The position numbers and the translations under genes were made by a program. Of a stretch of DNA of 32,000 nt, positions 1 through 32,000 are shown one piece after another; position 1 is the first letter of the stretch; each line of letters starts with the position of its first letter. The notes below the pieces were generated by a model. It had not been told where the DNA came from. It searched no databases and saw only the letters and a list, made by a program, of their open reading frames with translations. This DNA comes from Acaryochloris marina S15 (GTDB lineage: Bacteria > Cyanobacteriota > Cyanobacteriia > Thermosynechococcales > Thermosynechococcaceae), in NCBI RefSeq assembly GCF_018336915.1, contig NZ_CP064923.1, forward strand, positions 5,670,001 through 5,702,000. The letters are read 5' to 3'.

Positions 1-191
1 CTAAAGTTCGTTGGGAAAATGAAGGCATCATCGTTGACGATGACTCAGCCGTAGCAATGGGGAATTACTTCTTCACTAAAACAGATGGTGAAGAAATAAA
101 AGTGGAGTTTACCCTTGGTTACGTTAAAGACGACAATGGCAACTTAAAGATTAATCTGCACCATTCATCACTACCCTTTAGTGCCAACTAA
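1..191 (+). CDS. C-terminal end of an NTF2-like SgcJ/EcaC (CaMKII-association-domain) family protein, candidate iota-class carbonic anhydrase; 5' end lies outside the window
   Basis: The frame is open from base 3 to TAA at 189-191: ...GNYFFTKTDGEEIKVEFTLGYVKDDNGNLKINLHHSSLPFSAN*. It aligns with the C-terminus of the ORF at 19485-20030 (...GLYAFAVVKEG...RWLIVDHHSSGMP) and shares the HHSS motif. It is absent from the ORF track because there is no start codon in the window. Confidence 0.6.
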   Translation, partial: KVRWENEGIIVDDDSAVAMGNYFFTKTDGEEIKVEFTLGYVKDDNGNLKINLHHSSLPFSAN

Positions 192-298: not shown

Positions 299-613
299 TT
301 ACCCCTGCTTCTTGTCTTCTTCAACAGCTTCCGCAGGGGGAGCAGCCTCCTTCAAGGTTGATCCAACAATCTTTTCACAGGTTCCAGCAGGCACATAAAT
401 CCACTCTTCTGGGTCATTATCGACTGTCGCTTTACCAGAGCAGTCATGCTTGCTCGTGCCACAGTCATTGAGGCCAGTCTTGACGATACCCGCACATTTT
501 TCAAACCCAGGCTTACCGGCAACTGCATTGTCAGATCGAGTCGCAACTAAACCAAGGGCAAGCACACTGGATAAAGCAGTGGTAACGGCAACGGCTTTGG
601 TCGTTGTTTTCAT
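299..613 (-). CDS. Secreted DUF2282-type four-cysteine protein (BufA1 / bufferin-precursor-like)
   Basis: ATG at 611-613. Signal-peptide-like N-terminus [24 protein letters not shown], then [45 protein letters not shown]. As I recall, this is the DUF2282 4-Cys signature. Confidence 0.65.
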
Positions 614-826: not shown

Positions 827-1087
827 CTAACGAAGAGATTCACAGAGTGCATCAATATCTTGCTTGGCAATCTCACTGGCGGCTCGATGGAGCTTATATT
901 GCTGAGGGGGATGGGTCATGATCGCAATCACCGTTTCTATGGGTGGGCAACAAGGCTCATGACAGGCCAACTGACTAATTGACACCGGGATATCAGCAGG
1001 AATGGTAAAGGCTTCATAAACCCAGGCTTTCAGTTGTTCAATCTGTTCTGGATCCGCTTTAGGCGTAGATGTTTTAAACAAATCCAT
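827..1087 (-). CDS. Small Cys-rich hypothetical protein, last gene of the COG0523-WD40 operon
   Basis: ATG at 1085-1087 preceded by GGAGAG. It begins 23 nt after the WD40 stop on the same strand. Contains the motif CHEPCCPP. I do not recognise a family. Confidence 0.5.
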   Translation of the reverse strand: MDLFKTSTPKADPEQIEQLKAWVYEAFTIPADIPVSISQLACHEPCCPPIETVIAIMTHPPQQYKLHRAASEIAKQDIDALCESLR

Positions 1088-6029: not shown

Positions 6030-6987
6030 TATAGCAAGCGCCATTTTATTCAGGACATAATAAACTAGAGATACTGTTATGTCTTTCAATGGATGCCTAA
6101 AATCTACAGCTACGATTTACGTTGCAAAGTGATCGATGCTATTGAACTTGATGGCATGCCTCCCTCAGAAGCGAGTGACACCTTTCATATCAGTCGTAAC
6201 ACCATTAATCTATGGCAACGTCTCAAAGCAGAAACAGGTGATCTTCATCCCATCCCTAGACAACACCTTGGCCATAGCCACAAAATCACAGACTGGGATA
6301 AGTTTCGAGCTTTTGCTCAAGAACATCGCTATAAAACCCAAGCTCAGATGGCCGAGTTGTGGGAGGGGCAAATCAGTGAGCGTACTATTTCAAGAGCGCT
6401 GAAGAATATTGGATTTACTCGAAAAAAAAGACCTATGGCTACCGCCAACGCGATGAGCACAAACGGGCTGAGTTCGTCCAAAAGTTAACAACAGTAGACC
6501 CAGACGATATCGTCTATGCTGACGAGTCAGGGATGGACAATCGAGATGAGTATGACTATGGCTATGGTCCCAAAGGTGAGCGGGTCTATGCTTTAAAGTC
6601 TGGTAGCAGAAGTGGACGAGTCAATATGATTGCAGCTTTGAGAGGAAAGCAGCTCATGGCCCCGTTCACGATTGAAGGGGCTTGCAATCGCACCGTATTT
6701 GAAATTTGGCTTGAGACTTGTTTGATACCGATGCTCAAACCGGGGCAGAAGTTAGTCATTGATAATGCCACCTTCCATAAGGGAGGGCGAATTGAGCAAC
6801 TGGTAGAAGCCGCAGGATGTGAAGTGTGGTACTTGCCACCCTATTCTCCTGATTTGAATAAGATTGAACGGTCGTGGGCTTGGATTAAAAGTCGAATTAG
6901 ACACCAATTAGAGCACTTCGGTTCACTTAGAGAAGCAATGGAACATGTGTTGTACCTAGCGTCCTAATTAGAGTGGCGACTGCTATA
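6030..6987 (+). mobile_element. ISY100-like IS630/Tc1-mariner family insertion sequence, including flanking TA duplications
   Basis: Imperfect 27-bp terminal inverted repeats at 6030-6056 (TATAGCAAGCGCCATTTTATTCAGGAC) and 6961-6987; the reverse complement TATAGCAGTCGCCACTCTAATTAGGAC matches at 21 of 27 positions. TATA is present at both junctions, consistent with TA target duplication. The element is about 950 bp. Confidence 0.85.
6093..6967 (+). CDS. IS630-family transposase in two frames (HTH part 6093-6488; DDE part, ATG-delimited ORF 6533-6967)
   Basis: A -1 shift on the A8 run at 6422-6429 yields ...KKKTYGYRQRDEHKRAEFVQKLTTVDPDDIVYADESGMDNRDE..., a continuous transposase of about 290 aa. 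Confidence 0.8.
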
Positions 6988-7389: not shown

Positions 7390-7785
7390 TCAGGCTAAAA
7401 CCTCCACTTCAACGCAGTTCTGGCACAGACCAAAGAATTCTAGAGTGTGGTAAAAGACTTGAAATTTCTGTGTTTGTGAGAGTTCTTGTTCTAACTCGTG
7501 GACTGGGCAGTTCATTAATGGCATGGACCTGCCACAGTTTACACAGGTCAGATGATGTCGATGAGCGGAGGCAATACTATAAACCGCTTCACCATTGGGT
7601 AAAGAACGTGTTTGCACTTTGCCACGCTGCTGGAGAACCTTAAGGGCACGGTAAATCGTTGCCAACCCCACTCTTTGTTGCTGCTTTTTAAATTCTTGAT
7701 GCAGATCTTGAGCAGAAAATTCTTGGGGAGTGGAAAAGAGGACTTCCAACACGCGCCGCTGATGAGGGGTTAGTTTCTCTGGCAT
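7390..7785 (-). CDS. zur: Fur-family transcriptional regulator, most likely Zur
   Basis: Winged-helix N-terminus (LTPHQRRVLEVL...GLATIYRALKVLQQRG), HRHHLTCVNCG and CQNC CxxC pairs. It has its own Fur-type box upstream and is surrounded by boxed Zn-homeostasis genes. I prefer the ATG at 7783-7785 over the TTG at 7830. Confidence 0.8.
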   Translation of the reverse strand: MPEKLTPHQRRVLEVLFSTPQEFSAQDLHQEFKKQQQRVGLATIYRALKVLQQRGKVQTRSLPNGEAVYSIASAHRHHLTCVNCGRSMPLMNCPVHELEQELSQTQKFQVFYHTLEFFGLCQNCVEVEVLA

Positions 7786-7849
7786 ACTCAACTCCTTACT
7801 GCACCTGGAACGAGAACCTTTTTTTGACAAATCAAAAGACTATCGGACA

Positions 7850-7864
7850 TGATTATCATTCTCA
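7850..7864. promoter_or_regulatory. Degenerate Zur/Fur-type box upstream of zur (TGATTATCATTCTCA)
   Basis: Matches 12 of 14 arm positions. Lies 65-79 nt upstream of the zur ATG. An extra TGATAAC half-site is at 7870-7876. Confidence 0.55.
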
Positions 7865-9656: not shown

Positions 9657-9759
9657 AGGGCTGTATATGGAAACGCTGACAATTAAGGCTTCAAAAGCAT
9701 GTTGTTTGGGTGGTTAGGGGCATTTTCAGACCAGTCAGAAACCGCTTAATCACCTGCCT

Positions 9760-9925
9760 TCAGGCCGACCCACCCACTTCAATACAGTTCTGGCGCAGAT
9801 CCAAGAATTTGTGCGGTAAAAAACTTGCAATTTCTGTATTTGCGTCAGTTTCCGGTCTACCTCGTAGACGAGACAGTTCAGTCCTGGCATGGAGTTGACT
9901 CAGGTCAGAGGATGCCGTTGAGGGG
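9760..9925 (-). pseudogene. Decayed 3' fragment of a zur-like Fur-family gene, forming the tail of the feoB-like ORF
   Basis: Hand alignment to zur 7390 to about 7560. The shared end is ...(F)L(D)L(R)QNC(I)EV...A-TGA. Upstream, YEVDRKLTQIQKLQVFYRT aligns with HELEQELSQTQKFQVFYHT in another frame, with a net 4-nt length difference. SMPGLNCLVYE aligns with SMPLMNCPVHE. PLT-TGA-VN aligns with HLTCVNCGR, showing TGT to TGA plus a 9-nt deletion. Confidence 0.7.
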
Positions 9926-10542
9926 AACACCTCACTGGCGAATGCACCCGAGCACCAGTACCCTCCCCAGGCCAAGATCAAGGAGAAGCAAGTTGCCGCT
10001 ATTGCCTGACGACCCATTAACACCAGTGCAAATCGGAGAGACTGTTCTTTGGCGATCGTCAGGGCCGTGACCAAACAAGGTAACAAGACACCTGCCAGGT
10101 AGACCCCTGTGAGAATTTGCAGCGGTGTGAGAGCGGAGAGAGTTTCAGCTTCAGCAAAGAGCAGCAAACCATCTTTGCGAATAGAGGCCAGGATCATGGG
10201 CAAAGCTGCTTCTGGAGGGAGGCGAAAGATCTGCATCAGGGGATGAATAATGGATGCAGCAGCAGTCAGAAGACTCAGCTCATCTAAAATCGATGCGATC
10301 AAGGTAATGGCCACAAAAATGGGAATGGCATTGGTCAAAAACTGATGAAGCGTACCCTGGGTTTCTCGCCAGATGGTGGCTAAGTGTGGTCTTTCCAAAA
10401 ACGTGCGGTGTTCAATCATCAACGGGTTGTGGAGAGAACGAGCCGACTTAGGGGCAATCAAGCGAGTGTAGATCAGCGTTGTCAAAGTTAGATAACCCAA
10501 GTAGGGAATCACCAAGCTAGGCCAATGGGCTGCACTAAACAC

Positions 10543-14591: not shown

Positions 14592-14606
14592 TGATTATCA
14601 TTATCA
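14592..14606. promoter_or_regulatory. Zur/Fur-type box (TGATTATCATTATCA)
   Basis: Matches 13 of 14 arm positions. Lies 35 nt upstream of the flavoprotein ATG. Confidence 0.7.
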
Positions 14607-17780: not shown

Positions 17781-17795
17781 TGATAATCATTATCA
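17781..17795. promoter_or_regulatory. Zur/Fur-type box (TGATAATCATTATCA, both arms perfect)
   Basis: Perfect 7-1-7 palindrome upstream of the DUF1636 gene. Confidence 0.8.
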
Positions 17796-17982: not shown

Positions 17983-18915
17983 CTAAGAAGGCATAGGCCT
18001 TTGCAAGAGCCACTCCATCACCCGTTGCTTATGGGAGTCAATGCTGAAGACTCGCACTGCGTTACCTTGATATTCCGTCATTCTGCGATTGAGACTGTTC
18101 AGAACTTGCTGTGGGTTTGTCCCCTCAAGGGGTGGACAGCTTTGCCAAGCCCCCACTTTGAAATGTCTGGCATCGGCCTGTTCAATGCCAATTTGATTCC
18201 CCAACCGAAGTTGCCCCAGAATCTGTTCCAGCACTTCAGCGCTCAGCTGTTCTTGAAGCTTTTCATTCTGAGGTCGAGCTATCTCAGAGCGATGGCCATT
18301 GTTCAACGGTGCAGCACAGGCAATATCGTCTGCACAGCGATAGCCCGCCAGTAAAGCTCGATTGATCTCCACCACATGATGAGAAAAACGATGATCAGTT
18401 GTCTTGGCATCCGGTAGTCGGTCGGCCTCGCTTTGGTGGGTAATCACAACCCCTGATCCAACATATTTTCCAGGTGGAATTTCCACATCCTGGATAAGCG
18501 CATGCATCATCACAATACAGCGGTGCCCTACCTTGGAATTAAACACCGTTGATCGAAAGCCGATGAAACAATCATCGCCAATATAAGCAGGCCCGTGAAT
18601 CAAAGCCATATGGGTAATGCAGGTATGTTCACCAATCCAGACCGAGTAAGACTCACCATCATCTCCGGTGACTCGGCCTCGTTCTAAGCCATGTATGACC
18701 ACACCATCCTGAATATTAGTATTTGCACCAATGTAAAAGGGCATACCCTCATCTGCTCGAATGGACGTGCCAGGTGCGATTAAGACTTGGTGTCCCAGAC
18801 GAACATCTCCGATCAAGCTCGTTGAGGAATGCACATAGGCCGACTCACTAATTTGAGGTTGATCCAGCCCTTGATCCCAAGGGGTCGGAGGTGAAGGTTG
18901 CTGACGTAGAGGCAT
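17983..18915 (-). CDS. CcmM-like protein: gamma-carbonic-anhydrase domain plus a single RbcS-like SSUL module
   Basis: The N-terminal 200 aa or so is near-consensus CcmM gamma-CA ([74 protein letters not shown]). The C-terminus is [37 protein letters not shown]...[22 protein letters not shown], which is one SSUL repeat. Confidence 0.8.
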
Positions 18916-18952
18916 CTTTAATACTCCATTGGTTTAAAGTCGACTGGGCCCA

Positions 18953-19438
18953 TCAAAGCTGCGTCGGATTGGGGGCATCCCCATAGACCCGTTGGGGGTC
19001 AAAGGTTTTGGCCGCTTCTGTAAAGGTCAAGGCAATGGGAGAGGGGCCGTCCACTGCTTCCGTCCCCAAAGGAATTTGACGATAAAAACAAGACCGATAC
19101 CCTACATGGCAACTAGCTCCAGACCCCGCAACGGTCACCCGCATCCACAGGCAGTCTTGATCATCATCAATCAGCAATTGTTGAACGTATTGAATCAAGC
19201 CACTGGTGGCACCTTTGTGCCAGAGGGTCTGACGGCTGCGGCTGTAGTAATGGGCCTCTCCAGTTTCAATTGTTTTCATCAAAGCTGTCTGATTCATATA
19301 GGCATGCATGAGCAGTTCACCTGTTTGGGCATCAGTGGTCACCACAGGCATTAAACCGTCTTGATCAAACTTGGGGGAAAGCAGCGATCCTTCTTCGACT
19401 GCTTCGACAGAGGTACGCTGAGCGAATGAGAGAGTCAT
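18953..19438 (-). CDS. hisI: Phosphoribosyl-AMP cyclohydrolase
   Basis: [37 protein letters not shown]...[11 protein letters not shown]...[13 protein letters not shown] is the HisI signature with its Cys ligands. The ATG at 19436-19438 has GAGG upstream. Confidence 0.85.
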
Positions 19439-19484
19439 GGTAAACCTCAGAGACAACGATGGGTAAAACAGCTACTAGCTATTC

Positions 19485-20030
19485 CTAGATGTTTTGTTCG
19501 GGCATACCCGAAGAGTGGTGATCGACAATCAGCCAGCGATCGCCAATTTTGCGATAGACAAAGGTAAATCTCGCCATCAGCTCTGAAGGTCGCCCCTCTT
19601 TGACCACTGCAAAGGCATAGAGGCCAGAATTAACAGCCAGATCACAAAAAACCTGGATATTTTGCTCGACGATACGACCATCCGGCTTCAGGGCCAGGAA
19701 GCCTTGGAAGTAATCTTCAATTTCAGCAGGGGTATGTCGAACTCGGTTGGAAACCGTGGGCACCAGAATGGCATCAGGGGCATAGGTTTTGACGACTTCA
19801 CTGGGTTGACCTGTTTGCAGGGATTGATCCCATTGCTCAAACAAATCGGCAATCTCTGCGGGGGCCACGGTTGGGCAGCGAGTTTCAGCGAGAACGGGTG
19901 TACAAACAAAACTCAATAGTAAGCAGCAGCCCAAAAGCATTCCAATCACGTTCTTGATTCTGAGAAACGTTCTCTGCTGGGGCTGAGCTGAGCTGCAGGG
20001 CTGAGCGGGTTGATAGGCAGCGTTCATCAT
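19485..20030 (-). CDS. Exported NTF2-like SgcJ/EcaC (CaMKII-AD) family protein, candidate iota-class carbonic anhydrase
   Basis: Signal-peptide-like IGMLLGCCLLLSFVCTPVLAETR, then an NTF2-like domain ending in DRWLIVDHHSSGMP. The ATG-ATG at 20025-20030 has AGGA upstream and lies 10 nt after the thrS stop. Confidence 0.6.
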   Translation of the reverse strand: MMNAAYQPAQPCSSAQPQQRTFLRIKNVIGMLLGCCLLLSFVCTPVLAETRCPTVAPAEIADLFEQWDQSLQTGQPSEVVKTYAPDAILVPTVSNRVRHTPAEIEDYFQGFLALKPDGRIVEQNIQVFCDLAVNSGLYAFAVVKEGRPSELMARFTFVYRKIGDRWLIVDHHSSGMPEQNI

Positions 20031-20040
20031 TTTTCCTAAT

Positions 20041-21891
20041 CTAAATTTGTTGTTTGGCATCAATGGCGGTCTGCATTTTGTCGCACAGTTCTGGGAGCTT
20101 CAATAGCTCCTGCTCTTCTGAATGCCGAGTGCGAATAGTGAGGGTCTGGGTTTCAACTTCTTTTTTTCCCACCACAGCAACCACCGGAATTTTGTCTAGG
20201 GCTGACTGACGAATTTGTTTTCCTAAACGCTCTCCCGTCTGATCGACTTCAGCCCGGAAGCCCCTTTGCTGAAGCTGCTCTAAAACCTCAAGGGCATAGG
20301 GTCGCTGGGCATCACTGACGACGAGTAGCCGCATCTGCACGGGTGCTAGCCACAGGGGGAAATCCCCCGCATAATTCTCGATCAAAATGCCGAAGAATCG
20401 CTCCAAAGACCCAAAAATGGCCCGATGAATCATAATCGGGCGCTGCCGCGATCCATCTGCGGCGACATATTCCATCTTGAAGCGCTCAGGCAAATTAAAG
20501 TCCACCTGAATCGTGGAGCATTGCCACAGCCGTCCAATGGCATCCCGTATCTTCAGATCAATCTTGGGTCCATAAAAGGCACCCCCGCCTTCATCCGTGA
20601 GGTAATCCCAACCTTTACGTTCTAGGGCTGTGCGCAAGGCCTGGGTAGCCAAATCCCAAATATCATCGCTGCCCACTGATTTACCAGGCCGGGTTGAGAG
20701 ATTAACCTCATACTCTCGAAAGCCAAAGTCCGACAAAATCGTCTCGGTTAAGTTCAGAACCGCCAAAATCTCGTCGGCTACCTGATCTGGTAGACAAAAA
20801 ATATGGGCATCGTCTTGGGTAAAGCCCCGAACCCGCATCAGTCCATGTAGAGTCCCGGAGCGTTCGTACCGATAGACCGTCCCTAACTCCGCCCACCGCA
20901 GGGGAAACTCTCGATAGGAGTGGAGATCGTGCTGATAGGTGAGGACATGAAAGGGACAATTCATGGGCTTGATCTGATAGGCCTGGTTCTCCACATCCAT
21001 TTGATCAAACATGCTGTCCCGATAAAATTCGAAATGACCCGAGGTTTTCCACAGATCCAGATTGGCCATATGGGGGGTATAGAGCAACTCATACCCCCCC
21101 TGGATGTGCGCTTGTCGCCAGTACGCTTCAATGACCTGGCGAATTCGAGCCCCCCGTGGATGCCAAAAGACCAGTCCTCCCCCTGCGTTGTCTTCAATAC
21201 TAAAAAGCTTGAGGGTCTTGCCCAAAAGACGGTGGTCCCGACGCTGGGCTTCTTCTTTTTGGTGCAGGTACACTTTTAACTGCTTCGGTGTTTCCCAGGC
21301 GGTTCCATAGATCCGCTGCAGTTGCGCCTGGGCTTCATCGCCACGCCAGTAGGCTCCGGCGACGCTTTCGAGCCTAAAAGCCTTAGGATTTAGCTCCCCC
21401 GTACTGTTGAGATGGGGACCTGAGCACAGATCCCACCAAAATTCATTGGGGGCCACTGGCAACGGCTCAATCAGTGAGGCTTCCGCTTCGGGATGTTGAG
21501 TTCGTCCCGTGTCTGGACTGCCAATAAAATAACGGGTAATGGTTTCCCCCGCAGGAATCTGGGCCAATATTTCTAACTTATAGGGTTCTTGTAACTGTTC
21601 CAGTTCAGCCTGCATCTGATCGCGATCCACTTGTTCGCAGATGATGGGCAACTTGGCTTTGATAATCCGCCGCATCTGAGTGGATATGGCATCTAAATCG
21701 TCTGGTGTAAATGCCTGAGCACGGTCAAAGTCATAGTAGAAACCTGTCTCAGTCGTGGGACCAATCGTCACCTTTGTTTCAGGAAACAGATGCTGCACCG
21801 CCATGGCCATCACATGGGCACAGGTGTGGCGGAGTCGCTGCAATTGTTCGGCGGAATTGGGCGCTGATAGCGTAGAAGAAGCAGTAGACAT
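20041..21891 (-). CDS. thrS: Threonyl-tRNA synthetase (no N-terminal TGS domain), Zur-box-associated paralogue type
   Basis: Editing-domain HxxxH ([12 protein letters not shown]). Class II core with Zn-ligand motifs [16 protein letters not shown] and [14 protein letters not shown]-terminal anticodon-binding domain. Confidence 0.95.
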
Positions 21892-21930
21892 AGAGGCTTG
21901 CAGAGAAGGGCGAAGGGTTGCTTAAGCATA

Positions 21931-21945
21931 TGATAATGATTATCA
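21931..21945. promoter_or_regulatory. Zur/Fur-type box, perfect TGATAATGATTATCA, in the divergent thrS/folE intergenic region
   Basis: Lies 40 nt from the thrS ATG and 89 nt from the folE ATG. It overlaps AT-rich, -10-like hexamers on both strands. Confidence 0.85.
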
Positions 21946-22033
21946 TTATATTTGTTAAGACCTAGTTTGCTTTTGGATTGAAGCCGACTGGATCTCGAAG
22001 TGACCCTTATCCCTTTCCGCGTTAGGAGTTTCT

Positions 22034-22669
22034 ATGACCTTGCCTTCCATAACGACCTTCAATCCTGAAGAGATCGTCACTGAATCTCAGTCCATTGTCT
22101 CGGAGGCCGAAATGCAGGCTGCCGTCCGTACGTTGTTGCTGGGTATGGGTGAAGATCCCGATCGAGAAGGACTCCGAGATACCCCTAAGCGAGTGGTTAA
22201 ATCCTTAAAATTTCTGTCTTCGGGTTATCAGCAGTCCCTAGATGAATTGCTGAATGGGGCTGTCTTCTCCGAAGACCTGGATGAAATGGTCTTGGTGCGC
22301 GATATTGACCTCTTTAGTTCCTGCGAACATCATATCTTGCCCATTATTGGCAAAGCCCATGTGGCTTATATTCCCAACGGCAAAGTGATTGGCCTATCGA
22401 AAATTGCCCGCATCTGTGAGATGTATGCTCGGCGACTCCAGGTACAAGAACGATTAACGGCACAAATTGCCGATGCGTTGCAGGGCCTACTGAAGCCCCA
22501 AGGAGTCGCTGTGGTCGTAGAGGCAAGCCATATGTGCATGGTCATGCGAGGGGTACAAAAACCTGGCTCTTGGACCTCGACAAGCTCCATGCGAGGCGTG
22601 TTTTCCAGTGATGCCCGCACCCGCCAAGAGTTTTTTAACCTGATCGCCCACTCACCTGCAATTCGGTAG
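22034..22669 (+). CDS. folE: GTP cyclohydrolase I, canonical FolE (type IA)
   Basis: [20 protein letters not shown] and [10 protein letters not shown] motifs. TAGGAG RBS at 22024-22029. Confidence 0.95.
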
Positions 22670-22692
22670 TTACGGCTTAGGCCATCAGCACC

Positions 22693-23667
22693 ATGCTTCC
22701 CATCCCTGGACTATTTGAATATCGCCTGCCCGTTACCCTGATAACGGGCTTTTTGGGGAGTGGTAAAACCACTCTGCTGAACCATCTCATGCGCAATCTG
22801 GGGGATCGACGAGCGGCCGTTTTTGTCAATGAATTCGGAGCGATTGACATTGATAGCCAAATTCTAGTGACCGTGGATGAAGATCTAGTGGCTTTGTCTA
22901 ACGGCTGTATCTGTTGCCAAATTAGGGATGATTTTCTCATGGCCTTCCGACGGGTCTTGGCTTATAACCAAATGCAAACGTCCGCCGGGAAAAAGGGGCT
23001 AGATGCCATTTTCTTGGAAACATCCGGGGTGGCCGATCCCTATCCGCTGATGCTCACTTTTAGAGCCACCGAACTCTTTAGCCTGACCCGTTTAGATGCG
23101 ATCCTAACCGTTGTGGATGCTGAGGCCTTTACTGCTGAACATTTCCAAAGTCAGGCTGCTCTTGCCCAAATTCAACATGGCGACATTATCCTGCTGAATA
23201 AAACCGATCTAGTCGATCAAGAACAGCTCAGGTCCGTAGAAACTGAGATTCAGCGCCTGAAGCCCCAGGCCAAGATGCTACCCATGACCTATGGCCAAGT
23301 TCCTCTGTCTAGCGTTTTGGATGTGGATCTCTATTCTGAGGAAATGGCAGCCGGCCCACCCTCAGAAACCCAGCATCTCAAGGATGATGGGTTTGTAGCG
23401 GTACCCTTTGAAAGTGATCGCCCCTTTAACTTGAGAAAATTCCAGCAATTTCTGGACTATCAGCTACCCTCAGAAGTCTTTCGGGCCAAGGGGGTTCTCT
23501 GGTTTGACGAAAGTCCCCGCAGACATCTGTTTCAACTGAGTGGTAAACGGAGCCAACTGCAGGATGAGTCGTGGTTGGACTCCCCTAAGAACCAACTGGT
23601 GTGCATTGGCCGCAACTTGGATTCAGAACAATTACAACATCAGCTCCATCAGTGTCTTGCCCCATGA
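22693..23667 (+). CDS. COG0523 metallochaperone GTPase
   Basis: GFLGSGKTTLLNHL, GCICCQIRDD, ETSG, NKTD and a CobW_C-like end. Starts 23 nt after folE. Confidence 0.9.
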   Translation: MLPIPGLFEYRLPVTLITGFLGSGKTTLLNHLMRNLGDRRAAVFVNEFGAIDIDSQILVTVDEDLVALSNGCICCQIRDDFLMAFRRVLAYNQMQTSAGKKGLDAIFLETSGVADPYPLMLTFRATELFSLTRLDAILTVVDAEAFTAEHFQSQAALAQIQHGDIILLNKTDLVDQEQLRSVETEIQRLKPQAKMLPMTYGQVPLSSVLDVDLYSEEMAAGPPSETQHLKDDGFVAVPFESDRPFNLRKFQQFLDYQLPSEVFRAKGVLWFDESPRRHLFQLSGKRSQLQDESWLDSPKNQLVCIGRNLDSEQLQHQLHQCLAP

Positions 23668-24436: not shown

Positions 24437-25249
24437 ATGAAACTTGCGGTGATTTCCTGTATTCATGGCAATTATGAGGCCCTGAATGCCGTGCTCTCTG
24501 ATATTGATCGCCATAAAACCGACCAGATTTACTGTTTGGGTGATCTGGTGGGTTACGGTCCCCATCCCAATGCCGTAGTCGAGATGATTCGTTCCCTCGA
24601 TATTCCCACCTGTCAGGGCTGCTGGGATGAAGACATTGTCGAAGGTCTCAATGCCTGTGAATGTAGCTATCCTTCTCTGTTAGCAGAGAAACGGGGCAGG
24701 CAGGCCCATGAATGGACAAATCAAGTCATCCATCCAGAGGTGAGAGACTATCTGGCCCGTTTACCCATGACCCTACAGACTGAGAATCTGGCCTTTGTCC
24801 ACGGTAGCCCCAACAGTCAGCATGAATATCTACTGCCCAGCATGGATGGATTTGCCGCCCTAGAGCGGGTGGTCTCCACCGGAGCCGATGTCTTATTCTG
24901 TGGCCATACCCATGTTCCCTATGTACGGGAGTTAGAAGATGGCAACCTCTCCGTGCGTGTTCACCAACCTGGACAAGACGACCAGCAGCACCAGTTCACA
25001 ACGTCCCTGAAGCGAATTATCAATGCCGGATCCGTGGGAGAACCCCGCCACGGACGTCCCCATGCAACCTACGTTCTCTATGACACGGATACGGCCCAGG
25101 TGACGCTCCAGGAGGTGCCCTATGACTACGAGAAGACTTGTACAGCCATTATTGATAAGGGTTTGCCGCCCATTTTTGCCTGGCGCTTGGCCCGAGGAAT
25201 GGAGTTTGCAGAGCGAGCCGATGATCCCAGTCATGTGTGTCAGCGGTAG
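24437..25249 (+). CDS. Metallophosphoesterase (Metallophos_2 / MJ0936-like) with Cys substitutions at two metal-ligand positions
   Basis: ISCIHGN (usual ISDIHGN), LGDLVGYGP, QGCWDE (usual GNYDE/GNHD), HGSP, GHTHVP and GSVGEPRHG. Confidence 0.8.
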   Translation: MKLAVISCIHGNYEALNAVLSDIDRHKTDQIYCLGDLVGYGPHPNAVVEMIRSLDIPTCQGCWDEDIVEGLNACECSYPSLLAEKRGRQAHEWTNQVIHPEVRDYLARLPMTLQTENLAFVHGSPNSQHEYLLPSMDGFAALERVVSTGADVLFCGHTHVPYVRELEDGNLSVRVHQPGQDDQQHQFTTSLKRIINAGSVGEPRHGRPHATYVLYDTDTAQVTLQEVPYDYEKTCTAIIDKGLPPIFAWRLARGMEFAERADDPSHVCQR

Positions 25250-25274: not shown

Positions 25275-26012
25275 ATGGAACAGTGGGCTATTTTAAGCGG
25301 GATAGAAGGTAATCTTAGTGCCTATGAGGCCGTACTGGCAGATATCCGCCGACAGCGCTTTCCAGTGTCGGATTTGTATGTCTTAGGCGATTGTGTTGGC
25401 CTCAAGGGAGACAACAAGGCCGTGATCCGGCGGCTACAGTCTCCGGGGGCTGGAGAATTAGAGCCCCAAATTTGTATTGGCTGGTGGGAGGAGCAGTGCT
25501 TTAATTTATACGGGTTGGGCGGCTTGCCCGATGCGCCTGAACTGATCGAACAAGAGGGGGCTGATGCTGTTCAGCATCTTTGGGAATCGGTGTCCCGGGA
25601 ATCAGTTCAGTGGATGCGAACGCTCCACTTTGGGTTTCACGAATTGGATTGCCTGCTGATTCACGGTAGTACAGCAGGTTATGCGGATGAACTCACACCG
25701 GACACGCCCGCGATGCAACTGTGCGATCGCATAATTCAAGCCGATGCCAATCATCTCTTCTGCGGTCGCTCAGGACTCGCTTTTGAATGTTGGATTGAAC
25801 CCAAGGATCTACGCTCCACGGTCATAACCCTAGAGGGCACCCAGACTACACCGATGCAAAGTCATACGCCCCGGCGCGTCATCGGTGTCGGCAATGTTGG
25901 ACGTACATGGGGACAGGCCACCTATACCCTTTACAATCCCGCCAACAATCAAATCACCTTTAAGACCGTGAAATACACCAAGGCCAAAGGCTTTGCCTTG
26001 CAGCACTCATAA
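25275..26012 (+). CDS. Degenerate metallophosphoesterase paralogue (probable pseudoenzyme)
   Basis: Same fold pattern, but the motifs are SGIEGN (D and H lost), LGDCVG, GWWEE (N/H/D lost), IHGS and CGRSG (GHTH lost). Confidence 0.65.
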   Translation: MEQWAILSGIEGNLSAYEAVLADIRRQRFPVSDLYVLGDCVGLKGDNKAVIRRLQSPGAGELEPQICIGWWEEQCFNLYGLGGLPDAPELIEQEGADAVQHLWESVSRESVQWMRTLHFGFHELDCLLIHGSTAGYADELTPDTPAMQLCDRIIQADANHLFCGRSGLAFECWIEPKDLRSTVITLEGTQTTPMQSHTPRRVIGVGNVGRTWGQATYTLYNPANNQITFKTVKYTKAKGFALQHS

Positions 26013-26063: not shown

Positions 26064-27160
26064 TACAGATAAGCACTTAGCTAAAATTAATTACATAATC
26101 ATCGCCATAGGTTTTCAAAACTCTTTCCACATATTCGACCAAAGATGACCACCCCCAGTAGGCACTCATTTCAATCCACTGATATTTCATGAATTGCCAC
26201 AGACGCTCAATCAAATTTAGATGGGGAGAATAGCTTGGTAACTCAAACAAGGTAATTCCCCGTTCGGCCCACTCTGCCTTCATCTCATAGATTGCTTGGC
26301 TCGTATGGATAGGGGCTTGATCCATCACAATGACGGTGGGCAACTCCACGTCAGTAAAGAAGGTATCAATGCAATGACTGACAACCTCACTGGTGATGGT
26401 CTGTTCTGATGTATAAGCATGTAGCCCTTGTCGTCGACTCAAAAACCCCAGAACATTCAAGCGTTTACTTGAACGAGTCGGTATTTCCAGATAAGTCCCT
26501 ATGGGTTGCCATCCGTAGGGAATACAGGGGACTAACGAAAAACCACTCTCATCCATAAAGAATAGGTGGATGTCTCCCTTCTCTTCTTGTTTCTTGAGAT
26601 GTTCTAACTGCTGTTTTTTTCGAGGTAGTCGGCATATAAAGGCTGGCCTGATGTCCCTTGGCGAAAGCGATGCCAGCTCATATCCATCTGCTTCAAGACG
26701 CGTTTAACGGTGGCCTTTGACACGCGCACTGACCACTGCTGTTCAATCTGAGCTAGCACCCGATTGAGTTGGATGGGAGATGCCTGAGTCCACTCATAAA
26801 TCTGCTGTTGTTGGTCGGGATTAAACATCGGTTTTCGACCTCGGCCTGGGCGATTATAGAGTCCTGCAAAACCACGGTTATTCCAAGCCTTAAGCCAGTT
26901 GTACACGGTTTTAGGACTCACACTAAAAAGGGAGGCTAAGGTGTAGGGACTCACACCCTGGGCAGACAAAATGAGGCAATGGGCGCGTTGTCTGACCTGA
27001 TGATGGCGACTACAGCGATAAATCCGATGCAATAAGCGTAAGCTTTCGGTGGAGATAGGACGGACAATTGACATCAAATCAATGGATGTAAAAAAGAGGA
27101 CTCAGGTAGTTTACAACCTGGAAATTCTATGTAATTAATTTTGTCCATCTGCTTAATTTA
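26064..27160 (-). mobile_element. IS630-family insertion sequence (about 1.1 kb)
   Basis: Inverted terminal repeats: CAGATAAGCACTTAGCTAAAATTAATTACATA at 26066-26097 versus TATGTAATTAATTTTGTCCATCTGCTTAATT at 27128-27158. The inner 15 bp are perfect and the outer part is imperfect. TA is present at both junctions (26064-26065 and 27159-27160). Confidence 0.8.
26077..27077 (-). CDS. IS630-family transposase in two frames (HTH part 27077-26604, DDE part 26556-26077)
   Basis: A -1 shift on the A7 run (plus-strand T7 at 26614-26620) gives ...LEKKQQLEHLKKQEEKGDIHLFFMDESGFSLV..., a continuous transposase. Confidence 0.8.
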
Positions 27161-27163
27161 GAG

Positions 27164-28549
27164 GGCTCTCCGGTAATTAGCGTGGTGACACCCTACATAT
27201 AGTGTTTATTCCTTAGTCATCCCTATGGAATGATCTGAGGAGGTACTTCAGAACGAGAGTGTCATGGATAACTCAATTCGCATTCCCCTCAACCTTCCCG
27301 ATGTTCAAGTTCTAGAGCTATCGAAGACGGAACGAGGGGATTGGCTGATCAAAATTGAGAGTACTCTGCAAGGAACAACCTGCCACAAATGTGGACATGA
27401 GATTACTGACCTTCACTGCCATGATCAGGCTCTTCGAATTCGTCACTTGCCATTGTTCGAAGTACCAGTGTATTTAGAAATTCGGCCCAAGCGCTATCGA
27501 TGCGGGTATTGCGATGACCATCCCACAACAACTCAACGCTTAGAATGGCATGAACCTCGTAGTCCCAATACCAAAGCTTATGAGCATTGGCTTCTGCGTA
27601 TCCTGATCAACTCAACGGTCTCAGATGTTGCTAGGAAACTAGGCGTTAGTGAGGATGTCGTCAGTGGCACCATTGATCGCTGGATTGCCTGTCAAGTTGA
27701 CTGGAGCGAATATTTAGACCTCCAAGTCATCGGGATTGATGAGATTTCTCTGAAAAGAGGCCACCGTGATTTTGTAGTTTTGATCACGATTCCTACCACA
27801 GGCGGAGTAGACATATTGGCAGTTCTGGCCGACCGCAAACAACAGACCGTTGCAAATTTTCTTCAATCGATTCCCCTTCATTTACGCCAAACCATTGAGC
27901 GGGTTTGTACTGATATGTATCAAGGATTTGTCAGTGCAGTCCGTGAACAACTCCCTCAAACAAAAATTGTCATTGACCGCTTTCATGTGGCCAAAGCCTA
28001 TCGTAATGGTGCCGATACAGTTCGTAAACGGGAGGTCAAACGTCTACGCCAAGAACTCCCTAAGCAAGACTATGACAGTATCAAAGGTGCGATGTGGGCC
28101 TTTCGAAAACGGCCTGAGAATCTCCAGGAGTCAGAACAACAGTTGCTTGAGCGAGTGTTTGCTTATTCTCCTGAGATGAAGCAGGCCTACAAACTCCGAG
28201 AGGAATTGACACAGATATTTGAGGGTAGGTACACCAAAAACGGAGCTAAATGTGCCATCCGGGCTTGGTGTAAACGAGTCCTCAAAAGTGACATCAAGGA
28301 TTTTGAGAGTTTCCTGACCACTGTCAACAATTGGATGGATGAGATGACCAACTATTTTCTGGAGGGATGGACCAGTGGCTTTGTCGAAGGATTTAACAAC
28401 CGAGTTAAGGTCCTAAAAAGACGATGCTACGGTATTTTCGATATTGAAAGGCTCTTCCAAAGAATTTCGCTTGACCTCAATGGGTATCAGACTTTTGCCT
28501 TGACCTAAACACTATATCTAGCGGCTATCACGCTAATTCCCAGAGAGCC
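27164..28549 (+). mobile_element. ISL3-family insertion sequence (1386 bp)
   Basis: Imperfect terminal inverted repeats of about 42 bp (GGCTCTCCGGTAATTAGCGTG... at 27164 and ...CACGCTAATTCCCAGAGAGCC ending at 28549). Perfect 8-bp target duplication ATTTAGAG at 27156-27163 and 28550-28557. Confidence 0.9.
27264..28508 (+). CDS. ISL3-family transposase
   Basis: Zn-finger CHKCGH...CGYC, IGIDEISLKRGHRDFVVLIT and DRFHVAK. 414 aa and intact. Confidence 0.9.
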   Translation: MDNSIRIPLNLPDVQVLELSKTERGDWLIKIESTLQGTTCHKCGHEITDLHCHDQALRIRHLPLFEVPVYLEIRPKRYRCGYCDDHPTTTQRLEWHEPRSPNTKAYEHWLLRILINSTVSDVARKLGVSEDVVSGTIDRWIACQVDWSEYLDLQVIGIDEISLKRGHRDFVVLITIPTTGGVDILAVLADRKQQTVANFLQSIPLHLRQTIERVCTDMYQGFVSAVREQLPQTKIVIDRFHVAKAYRNGADTVRKREVKRLRQELPKQDYDSIKGAMWAFRKRPENLQESEQQLLERVFAYSPEMKQAYKLREELTQIFEGRYTKNGAKCAIRAWCKRVLKSDIKDFESFLTTVNNWMDEMTNYFLEGWTSGFVEGFNNRVKVLKRRCYGIFDIERLFQRISLDLNGYQTFALT

Positions 28550-28813: not shown

Positions 28814-29239
28814 CTACCCTTGCTCCTCTAGAAGGCGATAGACACGCGGCAACTCATGGGCATTCGCAATGTGTTTGCAATTTTGGGTGAGCAAGTAGTT
28901 TACTCCCGCTATTGCAGCAGCAGCAACATGCACAGCATCAGCCCCTGCGCTCTGAGGCATCAAGTGTTTAGCAAGTATTAGATTCGCCAGAGAATCCACT
29001 TCTGGATCAAGGGCTACAAGAGGAATGCCATCAAGTAACTTTAGCCTTTCTGCAGCGGCATTGGGATCACCCGCCGATGCTTCGGTAATGACAAGTTGCG
29101 ACGTAACGAGATGGAATTTTGAGGACTCGGTTGCCCACCACTGGCGAGCTTGATGCTGCAAAGCTGCCGCAGCGATGTCTAGACTCGGCCAAGCAGTCGC
29201 ATGACTGACGATTGACGTCTCAACGTAAACGGTGTCCAT
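28814..29239 (-). CDS. PIN-domain protein (VapC-like)
   Basis: The pattern VYVETSIV...LVITEAS...DAVHVAAAAIAGVNYLLTQNCKHI resembles the PIN acidic quartet, with E and N substitutions. Confidence 0.7.
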   Translation of the reverse strand: MDTVYVETSIVSHATAWPSLDIAAAALQHQARQWWATESSKFHLVTSQLVITEASAGDPNAAAERLKLLDGIPLVALDPEVDSLANLILAKHLMPQSAGADAVHVAAAAIAGVNYLLTQNCKHIANAHELPRVYRLLEEQG

Positions 29240-30418: not shown

Positions 30419-30613
30419 ATGCGCACTAACATTGTGATTGATGACCAACTCATGGCAGACGCCCTCAAAGCCACTGGACTCAAAACCAAGAAAGAAGCTG
30501 TTGAGCTTGGACTTAAGTTACTGGTTAAACGCAACCAACAACGGGACATTCGTAACCTCCGAGGCCAACTCAACTGGGAAGGCGACCTAGATGAGATGAG
30601 GAGCAACGATTGA
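30419..30613 (+). CDS. vapB: VapB-family type II antitoxin (DUF2191 / Rv0623-like)
   Basis: MRTNIVIDDQLMADALKATGLKTKKEAVELGLKLLV is the hallmark N-terminus. The stop overlaps the vapC start. Confidence 0.8.
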   Translation: MRTNIVIDDQLMADALKATGLKTKKEAVELGLKLLVKRNQQRDIRNLRGQLNWEGDLDEMRSND

Positions 30614-31014
30614 CCCTCATTGATACCAGCGTTTGGATTGATTATTTCAATGGCAACGATATGGACGAGACCAACCAGTTAGACACCCTGCTCTATGACG
30701 GGGAAGCCACCATGGGCGACCTCATCTTTCTGGAGATACTGCAGGGTTTTCGCTCCGACCAACAGTATGAGACCGTCAGGCGAAAACTGGCCAAGCTGGA
30801 ACGATACGAACTATTTGGAGATGCGATGGTGCTGCCTTGTGCCCAGAACTACCGCACCCTCAGAAAACTTGGCATCACCATTAGAAAGACGCCTGATGTC
30901 ATCATCGCCACCTACTGCATCGAGAATTCAGTCCCCCTTCTCTTTTCAGATCGGGACTTCCGCCCGTTCGTTCAGCATTTAGGGCTTATCGACGCTGGAA
31001 CCACAGAAACATAA
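30610..31014 (+). CDS. vapC: VapC PIN-domain toxin
   Basis: LIDTSVWIDYFNG...LEILQG...DVIIATYCIENSVPLLFSDRDF. The TTG start overlaps the vapB stop (ATTGA). Confidence 0.85.
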   Translation: MTLIDTSVWIDYFNGNDMDETNQLDTLLYDGEATMGDLIFLEILQGFRSDQQYETVRRKLAKLERYELFGDAMVLPCAQNYRTLRKLGITIRKTPDVIIATYCIENSVPLLFSDRDFRPFVQHLGLIDAGTTET

Positions 31015-31169: not shown

Positions 31170-31184
31170 TGATAATGATTATCA
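31170..31184. promoter_or_regulatory. Zur/Fur-type box, perfect TGATAATGATTATCA
   Basis: Lies 86 nt upstream of the COG0523 ATG at 31270. Confidence 0.85.
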
Positions 31185-31269: not shown

Positions 31270-32000
31270 ATGATTCAATCCCCCACTCAACAAGCCGTAC
31301 CTCAAACCGAGCTAAAACTCCCCAAATGGGGGTTGCCCGTGACGATCATTACGGGCTTCCTCGGCAGTGGGAAGACCACATTGCTCAATCATATTCTCAA
31401 TGATTGCCAGGATCTCAAAGTCGCAGTGTTGGTCAATGAGTTTGGCGATATCGATATTGATAGCCAGCTCTTAGTGTCTGTTGAGGAAGATATGGTGCAG
31501 CTCAGCAATGGCTGTATCTGCTGCACGATCAACGACGATTTGGTGGAAGCGGTCTACAGCATTTTAGAGCGGAATGAGAAGGTGGATCACTTGGTGATCG
31601 AAACAACGGGGGTGGCCGATCCATTGCCAATCGCACTAACCTTTGCGATGCCGCCCCTGCGGAATTTAACCCAACTGGATTCCATCGTCACCCTAGTGGA
31701 TGCAGAAGCCTTCTCTCCCCAGCATTTTGAGAGTGAAGCCGCCCTCAACCAGGTGTCTTATGCCGACATTATTCTGCTCAATAAAACGGACTTAGCTGGC
31801 CCTCAACAGGTAGATGCCTTGGAAGCATGGGTTCGAGAACAGAAATGGGGTGCACGGATTTTGCGATCGCAAAACAGCAACATCCCCCTCCCCTTGATTT
31901 TAGATACAAATCTCTTTCAGCCAGAGCGCTATACCGCAGAAGCCAAAGCAATGGCTAAGACAACCCCTGATCACCCTGACCCTCACTGCCACAATCCTCA
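31270..32000 (+). CDS. COG0523 metallochaperone GTPase, 3' end outside the window
   Basis: ATG at 31270. MIQSPTQQ...GFLGSGKTTLLNHIL, GCICCTINDD, ETTG and NKTD. A His-rich stretch (PDHPDPHCHNP) begins at the window edge. It is absent from the ORF track because there is no stop in the window. Confidence 0.9.
   Translation, partial: MIQSPTQQAVPQTELKLPKWGLPVTIITGFLGSGKTTLLNHILNDCQDLKVAVLVNEFGDIDIDSQLLVSVEEDMVQLSNGCICCTINDDLVEAVYSILERNEKVDHLVIETTGVADPLPIALTFAMPPLRNLTQLDSIVTLVDAEAFSPQHFESEAALNQVSYADIILLNKTDLAGPQQVDALEAWVREQKWGARILRSQNSNIPLPLILDTNLFQPERYTAEAKAMAKTTPDHPDPHCHNP

Follow-up and report, generated by a model that had tools for sequence, protein, structure and literature searches.

A putative Zur-controlled operon in Acaryochloris marina S15 joins a single-SSUL satellite CcmM with an iota-carbonic anhydrase homologue

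We analyzed a stretch of 32,000 nucleotides (nt) from Acaryochloris marina S15 (contig NZ_CP064923.1, positions 5,670,001 to 5,702,000; hereafter the window), in which four closely spaced genes lie on the minus strand behind a palindrome resembling a binding site of the zinc regulator Zur (Zur box). They encode a threonyl-tRNA synthetase paralogue (thrS), an NTF2-like protein, a paralogue of the PR-AMP cyclohydrolase HisI, and a CcmM-like protein with a gamma-carbonic anhydrase (CA) domain followed by a single RbcS-like module (SSUL). An initial annotation, made from the sequence alone, had read these genes as a Zur-controlled operon with two unrelated CA candidates, and the gene order and spacings that it gave agree with our coordinates (Table 1). 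Searches with Pfam and NCBIfam, a check that it had proposed, gave the same identity for all four genes; the NCBIfam models for thrS, hisI, and the SgcJ/EcaC family were all matched above their cutoffs. The HisI paralogue contains three cysteines (in DQDC, ASCH, and RSCF), which we take to be the zinc ligands of HisI. The thrS product corresponds to ThrRS T2 of Anabaena, a Zur-induced enzyme that works at low zinc and forms mixed dimers with T1, which itself dissociates at low zinc (PMC4787780).

Table 1. Features of the operon and its surroundings, in window positions (aa, amino acids; ORF, open reading frame).
Feature	Position	Strand	Remarks
thrS paralogue	20041-21891	-	616 aa, no TGS domain; TIGR00418, 696 bits; tRNA-synt_2b + HGTP_anticodon + tRNA_SAD (Pfam)
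NTF2-like ORF	19485-20030	-	180-192 aa; 10 nt after thrS, assuming the Met start of NCBI's identical 181-aa A. marina protein
hisI paralogue (PR-AMP cyclohydrolase)	18953-19438	-	161-167 aa; 46 nt after the NTF2-like ORF; PRA-CH
CcmM-like gene	17983-18915	-	310 aa; 37 nt after hisI; Hexapep + one RuBisCO_small
gamma-CA domain of the CcmM-like protein	18298-18915	-	aa 1-206; gap-free against Thermosynechococcus CcmM, with equal numbering (3KWC, E 6e-95)
Single SSUL (RbcS-like)	17992-18252	-	aa 222-308; PF00101 E 1.7e-9; 6HBA E 1e-18; Rca SSUL 6HAS E 8e-13
Sigma-70-like promoter	21930-21958	-	-35 TTAACA at 21958, 17 nt spacer, -10 TATCAT ending at 21930; 10/12
Zur box TGATAATGATTATCA	21931-21945		perfect 7-1-7 palindrome between divergent thrS and folE; 40 nt 5' of thrS
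Second perfect Zur box	17781-17795		3' of the operon, 5' of DUF1636-crp-WD40-DUF2396
Zur box	14592-14606		5' of a flavoprotein (Pyr_redox_3) / split FeoB-like GTPase / Gate-domain unit
Third perfect Zur box	31170-31184		followed by the third COG0523 gene, 31318-32000 (+), which extends past the window edge
Fur-family regulator gene	7390-7830	-	2-mismatch box 7850-7864 just 5'
folE (FolE1 type) + COG0523 GTPase gene	22034-23667	+	divergent; Zur box in common with the thrS operon
C-terminal end of a COG4337-type 'metal-independent' iota-CA	3-191	+	ends NLKINLHHSSLPFSAN; 7C5X E 4e-39, 7C5V E 1.5e-8

The palindrome in front of thrS, TGATAATGATTATCA, was verified as a perfect match at the place indicated by the initial annotation. 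The Zur protein of Anabaena recognizes a palindrome of this 7-1-7 form (Napolitano 2012, described in PMC3323870). By consensus match alone, the best promoter-like site of the region faces thrS, and its spacer and -10 element overlap the Zur box. Terminator-like matches within the operon occurred at chance level (6 versus 4.9 expected), all of them inside coding sequence. The end of the operon is marked by the second perfect box.

Zur boxes were abundant throughout the window. The pattern matched ten times at three or fewer mismatches, three of the matches being perfect, against an expectation of 1.65, and none of 100 shuffled sequences attained ten matches. These boxes precede the three COG0523 genes, the Fur-family gene, which is probably zur, and two further units, namely DUF1636-crp-WD40-DUF2396 and the flavoprotein/FeoB-like unit. 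At related loci, boxes of the same type as TGATAATGATTATCA also lie 5' of COG0523, folE, thrS, and znuA. The window, in which six Zur-like boxes accompany the three COG0523 genes, folE, and the Fur-family gene, is thus a zinc island of A. marina. A syntenic stretch of the A. marina MBIC11017 chromosome (L004 in our survey numbering; NC_009925, around 3.07 Mb) encodes proteins 91-95% identical to those of the window, with the same gene order and box. The neighborhood of the COG0523 gene AM1_3031 on the A. marina chromosome, beside WD40 and zur, has been marked as zinc-related, with no mention of a CA (Barnett et al. 2012).

The gamma-CA domain of the CcmM-like protein aligned with Thermosynechococcus CcmM, and we estimated from the alignment an identity of about 75% to the active CcmM209 over residues 3-206. 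Further structure matches were 7D6C and 7O4Z (E about 1e-67). Among 35 paralogous and canonical sequences, R53, D55, E56, Q69, H75, H102, H107, N185, C194, and C200 were invariant. The three histidines H75, H102, and H107 are the metal ligands, and they are present in the Acaryochloris protein together with the motifs quoted in the initial annotation, which had described the domain as complete. R53, D55, E56, Q69, and N185 presumably correspond to R59, D61, E62, Q75, and N202 of Cam. The C-x5-C pair that had been noted is formed by Cys194 and Cys200, at positions equal to those of Thermosynechococcus CcmM, and its invariance argues for a CA that would need to be kept silent in the cytosol. The NIQDG stretch is intact in both of the paralogue clades delimited below and has drifted (N67, D70) in the non-catalytic CcmM of Synechococcus 7942.

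The C-terminal part of the protein resembles both SSUL1 of CcmM and the SSUL of Rubisco activase (Rca). We found one PF00101 match only (aa 222-307), in agreement with the single SSUL predicted earlier; the protein ends at aa 310, and its canonical relatives are 529-543 aa long. At the positions of R251, R252, R254, and R298 in Se-CcmM, the Acaryochloris module carries R, H, K, and K. The basic patch of the SSUL binds Rubisco, and the gamma-CAL domain is trimeric and the hub of M58 interactions (Zang 2021, PMC8580825). The initial annotation had suggested that one SSUL could dock a CA on Rubisco without cross-linking it. This does not follow, since a gamma-CA trimer brings three SSULs per particle, and the bridging of Rubisco would be possible in principle.

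The CcmM-like protein differs from canonical CcmM in having one SSUL where the latter has three to five, in lying at a locus without ccm neighbors, and in scoring below the threshold of the beta-carboxysome CcmM model. The genes around it are thrS, the iota-CA homologue, hisI, and DUF1636, not ccmK-L-M-N. It belongs to the type described as 'satellite CcmM with a single SSLD'. For A. marina MBIC11017, a complete K-K-L-M-N-O main locus, the entry '2nd CcmM = y', and two CcaA have been tabulated (Sommer 2017 Table S1, PMC5853843), and the main-locus genes AM1_5381 (ccmK) and AM1_5383 (ccmM) appear in a published A. marina transcriptome table. The possibility raised in the initial annotation, that the genome has no other ccmM and that the gene is the housekeeping copy, was rejected on the basis of the canonical ccmM AM1_5383 beside ccmK AM1_5381 and of the second CcmM recorded for A. 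marina.

The NTF2-like protein, which matches an A. marina entry (NCBI, 181 aa) at 100% identity, is by sequence a probably exported homologue of the COG4875-type iota-CAs (CaMKII_AD / SgcJ-EcaC family). Its Pfam matches were CaMKII_AD (PF08332, E 6e-19), DUF4440, and SnoaL. The sole PDB sequence match obtained with phmmer was 3H51 from X. campestris (E 6e-33), with an identity of about 50% as estimated from the alignment and 44% over the Foldseek alignment. The iota-CA literature regards 3H51 as a COG4875 iota-CA; a putative bicarbonate occupies its pocket, and it shares 51% identity with the Burkholderia enzyme that has been assayed. A profile built from 14 homologues of the NTF2-like protein recovered 3H51 (4e-49) and then the COG4337 iota-CA 7C5X (1.9e-10). 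An AlphaFold model (pLDDT 80.5) displayed an NTF2 fold with 3H51 as the best Foldseek match (E 9e-15), although a fold search of this kind cannot tell CAs from other NTF2 enzymes. Exact-sequence look-ups for the 181-aa A. marina protein P0121 and for P0066 returned no match.

The candidate active-site residues are conserved. In the D-H-H-S-S end of the protein (...IVDHHSS, as the initial annotation had read it), H170, H171, and S173 were invariant and S172 nearly so among the 14 homologues (180-aa numbering); Tyr106 (DYF) was invariant and Thr91 (PTVS) nearly so, and both align with the same residues in 3H51. The equivalence of T91/Y106 with Thr106/Tyr124 of Anabaena all2909 is to be read with the profile aligned to COG4337 in the C-terminal half only. 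In the proper alignment that had been called for, T91 and Y106 match 3H51, with the comparison to all2909 limited to that half. All orthologues have a basic n-region and about 20 hydrophobic aa followed by an A-x-A motif, by inspection a probable signal peptide; in the Acaryochloris protein it ends at VLA|E.

The link to iota-CAs drawn in the initial annotation therefore stands with respect to the CA family and the HHSS motif; what changed is the subfamily, because the operon protein is COG4875-type and the COG4337-type member is the fragment at the window edge. We considered an assignment of the operon protein to the COG4337 enzymes represented by all2909 and rejected it, as phmmer gave 3H51 only and 7C5X was reached weakly and in the C-terminal half. 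The second family member, said to end in LHHSS, was found as described, with the end NLKINLHHSSLPFSAN; its gene extends past the window edge, and its start and any Zur box in front of it lie outside the window. Together, the two genes indicate that both iota-CA subfamilies occur in this Acaryochloris. COG4875 and COG4337 iota-CAs rarely coexist in one organism (Hirakawa et al.).

A scan of one genome per species ('genome_contigs') gave 22 loci, and the window proteins and the box pattern were mapped onto them. Gamma-CA paralogues that are short or truncated (the complete ones 211-335 aa long) were present at 21 of these loci, in Leptolyngbyaceae, Coleofasciculus, Alkalinema, Pantanalinema, Egbenema, Aphanocapsa, a Prochloraceae metagenome-assembled genome (MAG), and Thermosynechococcaceae MAGs. 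Fourteen of the 21 consist of a complete gamma-CA domain and one SSUL (310-335 aa). Four are gamma-CA only (211-213 aa; L005, L006, L022, and L023) and stop shortly after Cys200; these forms were seen in Thermosynechococcaceae MAGs and at two of three Coleofasciculus loci. Of the remaining three, one is frameshifted (L025), one has a truncated reading frame on a low-coverage contig (L020), and one is cut by a contig end (L024), and the frameshift and early stop in L025 and L020 could be assembly errors.

In a neighbor-joining tree, the paralogues formed two clades outside the canonical CcmMs, each with 100% bootstrap support; their joint monophyly was recovered with a bootstrap value below 50%. 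In clade B, the basic patch of the SSUL reads R-R-F-R, compared with R-H-F-K in Acaryochloris, and R298 is retained as well. Wherever flanks exist, the neighbors comprise hisI, one to four COG0523 genes, folE, thrS, DUF1636, WD40, flavoprotein, and FeoB-like genes. In all, about 20 loci of other cyanobacterial lineages have the short gamma-CA paralogue next to COG0523, folE, hisI, and thrS. The DUF1636-crp-WD40-DUF2396 and flavoprotein/FeoB-like units of the window are again found next to the CcmM paralogue at most related loci.

The Zur box kept its position at these loci. In clade B, the larger of the two, a box with two or fewer mismatches precedes the paralogue ATG by 7-12 nt at 17 of 17 loci, the distance being 7 nt at 14, within the conserved context ...TATTAT-N5-ATGATAATCATTCTCA.... 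No box was found, even at three mismatches, at L007, the one canonical-looking locus of the scan (at least two SSULs), or at the ccmK-K-L-M-N-O locus of Microcoleus (L033). On a plasmid of A. marina MBIC10699 (L002), a deletion has fused thrS codons 1-31 to hisI codons 107-167, which brings the CcmM-like gene immediately after the perfect box, with pyrC-like, cysS, exbBD, and znuA genes as neighbors. The fusion is an 88-aa ORF (9697-9963, AP026077), and the iota-CA gene has been lost there. In at least 15 cyanobacterial genomes besides this one, short carboxysome-type and exported iota-type CA genes stand behind Zur boxes. The conserved boxes suggest that the CcmM-like and iota-CA genes are under Zur, in support of the regulation proposed in the initial annotation.

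Genes for iota-CAs accompany the paralogues at several loci. Orthologues of the operon protein (66-79% identity) lie 3' of a Zur-boxed thrS in four further genomes, at L018, L026/27, L028, and L030/31, all with the signal peptide, T, Y, and HHSS. At L009, a Zur box, a gamma-CA-SSUL gene, a COG4875 CA, and a COG4337 CA are packed into 6 kb beside znuA. A CcmM paralogue of 66% identity at L003 (ENA ERZ26696399 contig_69) is accompanied by hisI, cysS, two COG0523 genes, folE, and a COG4337 CA; the two COG4337 CAs at L003 and L009 are relatives of the fragment in our window. At L003, the cyanobacterial Zur box was not matched well; we found only a half-box with three mismatches 5' of hisI, and the regulator motif there may differ. 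In a Xenococcaceae MAG, a 60%-identical NTF2-like homologue is part of a chemotaxis cluster, so that the zinc link is valid for the close orthologous group only. An ORF of the DsrE/SaoD family (121-133 aa) lies between thrS and the iota-CA gene (L026 7603-8004, L028 7639-8004, L030 7639-8004) and overlaps the start of the latter by 4 nt. Acaryochloris is without this ORF, and its iota-CA has about 23 additional N-terminal residues.

The individual components have precedents. A single-SSLD satellite CcmM had been described in Microcoleus, in Rubidibacter, and in the families of Acaryochloris and Leptolyngbya (Long 2011, cited in Sommer 2017, PMC5853843). It is the same kind of protein as ours, in which a gamma-CA domain is joined to one RbcS-like domain and whose gene lies away from the ccmKLMN locus. 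As far as that account goes, extra CA activity or Rubisco recruitment was proposed for it without a regulatory context, to which the Zur boxes and the zinc island are added here. The CcmM of Thermosynechococcus elongatus (3KWC) has the ligands, the catalytic residues, and Cys194/Cys200 in common with the CcmM-like protein. Unlike the Acaryochloris paralogue, it is encoded at the main carboxysome locus, carries several SSULs, and has no second CcmM beside it in the genome. The SSUL-bearing Rca of Nostoc (6HAS) likewise carries one SSUL on an oligomeric enzyme for Rubisco/carboxysome targeting, although it is an AAA+ hexamer with no zinc link and the CcmM-like protein would be a gamma-CA trimer.

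Zur-regulated paralogues of gamma-CA, HisI, and ThrRS are known in proteobacteria (Haas 2009), and the operon and its surroundings follow the principle, and share some of the genes (ThrRS, HisI, FolE, gamma-CA, and COG0523 behind Zur boxes), of the Zur-regulated zinc-enzyme paralogues described before (Haas 2009; Napolitano 2012; Rubio 2015). The proteobacterial gamma-CAs are free Cam-like enzymes, whereas the Acaryochloris protein has a putative carboxysome-targeting module and is accompanied by iota-CAs. The Anabaena Zur regulon, as summarized in a review, includes no CA. The COG4875 iota-CAs (LCIP63, BteCA-iota, and 3H51) and the COG4337 iota-CAs (Anabaena all2909 and B. natans Bn86287) share the CaMKII_AD/NTF2 fold and HHSS, and probably the Thr and Tyr, with the operon protein, which has a single domain and a signal peptide like other bacterial iota-CAs. 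None of the known iota-CAs has been tied to Zur in the open papers searched. Both subfamilies occur together in the islands described here. We found no open full-text paper linking CcmM or iota-CA to Zur, COG0523, or zinc limitation, subscription journals being outside the coverage of this search. Zur-controlled zinc-enzyme paralogues, single-SSUL satellite CcmMs, and possibly metal-flexible iota-CAs are already known, and the connection alone is new. The claim of a new branch of the Zur response is therefore to be narrowed to the link of satellite CcmM and iota-CA with Zur.

We consider it reasonably probable, given the arrangement of genes and boxes, that the operon is derepressed by Zur at low zinc and supplies an exported iota-CA and a carboxysomal satellite CcmM. 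The four genes would form one transcription unit, repressed by zinc-loaded Zur through the palindrome over the -10 element. At low zinc, the unit would be released along with the divergent folE-COG0523 operon, as proposed from its likeness to the thrS2, folE, and COG0523 genes of Anabaena, and would yield a second ThrRS and a second HisI. The COG4875 iota-CA, directed to the periplasm or lumen, could replace zinc-dependent alpha/beta CAs in the interconversion of CO2 and HCO3- outside the cytoplasm. The satellite CcmM, with its complete gamma-CA domain and one predicted Rubisco-binding SSUL, might trimerize alone or mixed with full-length CcmM and be carried into the carboxysome by the SSUL or the gamma-CA trimer. 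There, and only there, the Cys194-Cys200 disulfide would activate it, and it would provide carboxysomal CA activity when the zinc-dependent beta-CA CcaA cannot be metallated. Its three-histidine (His3) site could be served with priority by the co-induced COG0523 GTPases, or it could take up a different metal. A wider proposal, which we put forward tentatively and hold to be somewhat less than even in probability, is that many beta-cyanobacteria hold a Zur-controlled 'carbonic-anhydrase replacement kit'. In it, the redox-gated gamma-CA-SSUL protein would replace carboxysomal CcaA, possibly as mixed trimers with CcmM, and one or two exported iota-CAs (COG4875 and/or metal-free COG4337) would replace periplasmic alpha/beta CAs.

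Several findings weigh against the supply of a carboxysomal and an exported CA at low zinc as set out above. In the Acaryochloris SSUL, R252 and R254 are changed to His and Lys, and the module's own Cys pair is lost; the gamma-CA-only forms have no SSUL at all, so that Rubisco docking is not universal. The NCBIfam model NF053794 for beta-carboxysome CcmM was matched over its full length at 466 bits, below its cutoff of 550. The cyanobacterial Zur consensus that we used derives from descriptions in the secondary literature and from internal consistency. The search pattern DEGMPFYI is typical of the paralogues and biased the retrieval of loci toward them, which does not weaken the association within the locus set. 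Regarding the metal, the full His3 site is retained and the gamma-CA does not look zinc-free, and the metal of the COG4875 iota-CAs is disputed, with Mn in the diatom enzyme and Zn proposed in Burkholderia. The zinc-sparing replacement envisaged in the initial annotation is thus a matter of conjecture, given the three His ligands of the gamma-CA and the Burkholderia iota-CA reported with Zn. We also looked for a paralogue-specific change of the metal site and rejected it; only five columns were specific to the paralogues (P7, P30, Q43, M58, and N65), none of them a ligand, and the sequence therefore offers no argument for a different metal. The data agree just as well with prioritized metallation by the neighboring COG0523 proteins, which is no less likely than a change of metal.

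These observations bear on an account that departs from the proposed mechanism in the metal alone, namely that both CAs are still zinc-dependent, as clients of the co-induced COG0523 metallochaperones, and that the island re-allocates scarce zinc to priority enzymes. We regard it as rather unlikely, though it deserves serious attention. The intact His3 site and the zinc proposed for the Burkholderia iota-CA would be expected, the Cys/His ligand motifs of the ThrRS, HisI, and FolE1 paralogues beside the CcmM-like gene are visible in the translations, and the window contains three COG0523 genes, related islands as many as four. HisI and ThrRS paralogues also retain their zinc sites (Haas 2009). 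Yet the COG4337 relatives in these islands belong to a family shown to be active without metal, and Cam-type gamma-CAs function with Fe or Co. If the NTF2-like protein were no CA at all, it could be an exported SgcJ/EcaC-family protein engaged, for example, in periplasmic ligand or metal handling during zinc starvation. This we consider unlikely: HHSS and the presumed counterparts of the Thr and Tyr that all2909 needs for activity are invariant or nearly so, the protein is about 50% identical to 3H51, itself 51% identical to the assayed Burkholderia enzyme, and a COG4337 CA is present in the same islands. The idea draws on the great functional diversity of the fold, with ketosteroid isomerases, designed binders, and CaMKII hubs following 3H51 among the matches, on the DsrE/SaoD-family ORF that precedes the gene in most islands, on the homologue in the chemotaxis cluster, and on the small number of proteins of the subfamily for which CA activity has been measured.

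In gamma-CAs such as Cam and CcmM, the metal ligands are contributed by neighboring subunits of the trimer. The trimer core of full-length CcmM (M58) might be unstable at low zinc, and a paralogue binding the metal more tightly could maintain assembly and the recruitment of CcaA/CcmN, with CA activity being secondary. Such a scaffold rescue would parallel ThrRS, where T1 dissociates at low zinc and is joined by T2 in mixed dimers, and would be in line with the trimeric gamma-CAL domain as the hub of M58 interactions and with the existence of gamma-CA-only variants. Nevertheless, all catalytic residues and the Cys194-Cys200 switch are invariant in both paralogue clades; the scaffold-only CcmM of Synechococcus 7942 has drifted at N67 and D70. 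In our analysis, scaffold rescue appears improbable and is the weaker alternative to catalysis. Hardly credible is a chance co-location, in which the CA genes would have entered a mobile island without being linked to zinc by regulation or function. The insertion sequence (IS) elements and toxin genes of the window and the chromosomal and plasmid copies in A. marina are compatible with it, but the box-to-ATG distance is fixed at 17 of 17 loci from different families, and the neighbors are conserved between lineages at only about 50% protein identity.

Textbooks name carbonic anhydrase as the enzyme that ties carbon fixation in phytoplankton to zinc. The conserved Zur boxes and zinc-island neighborhoods would put the single-SSUL second CcmM and bacterial iota-CAs into the zinc-starvation response. 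If the wider proposal of a replacement kit is true, zinc supply would actively remodel the CO2-concentrating mechanism, and the long-known satellite CcmM and the bacterial iota-CAs would gain a first physiological role. A compact, redox-gated, self-targeting carboxysomal CA may also help carboxysome engineering in plants. The proposal is testable, as A. marina is in culture. Leptolyngbya boryana is genetically tractable. This species has been flagged with a second CcmM (Sommer 2017 Table S1, PMC5853843).

Further genes of the window fall outside the operon. A DUF2282 protein (104 aa, 299-613, minus strand), with a signal peptide and conserved Cys, lies at the edge of the zinc island; we take DUF2282 to be a family of bufferin-type metal-binding peptide precursors. 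There is also an 86-aa ORF with a CHEPCCPP motif (827-1087, minus strand), without a Pfam match, whose relatives (52-64% identity) directly adjoin DUF1636 in the zinc islands L012, L013, L015, L018, and L026-L029. On the plus strand, 3' of folE-COG0523, the ORFs 24437-25249 and 25275-26012 share 27% mutual identity, and the first encodes a calcineurin-like metallophosphoesterase; the two are possibly more metal-enzyme paralogues of the Zur regulon. The island is interrupted by IS630-like and ISL3 transposase genes (6093-6967, 26077-27077, and 27264-28508) and by two PIN-domain toxin genes (28814-29239 and 30610-31014), which is consistent with the chromosomal and plasmid copies in different A. 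marina strains.

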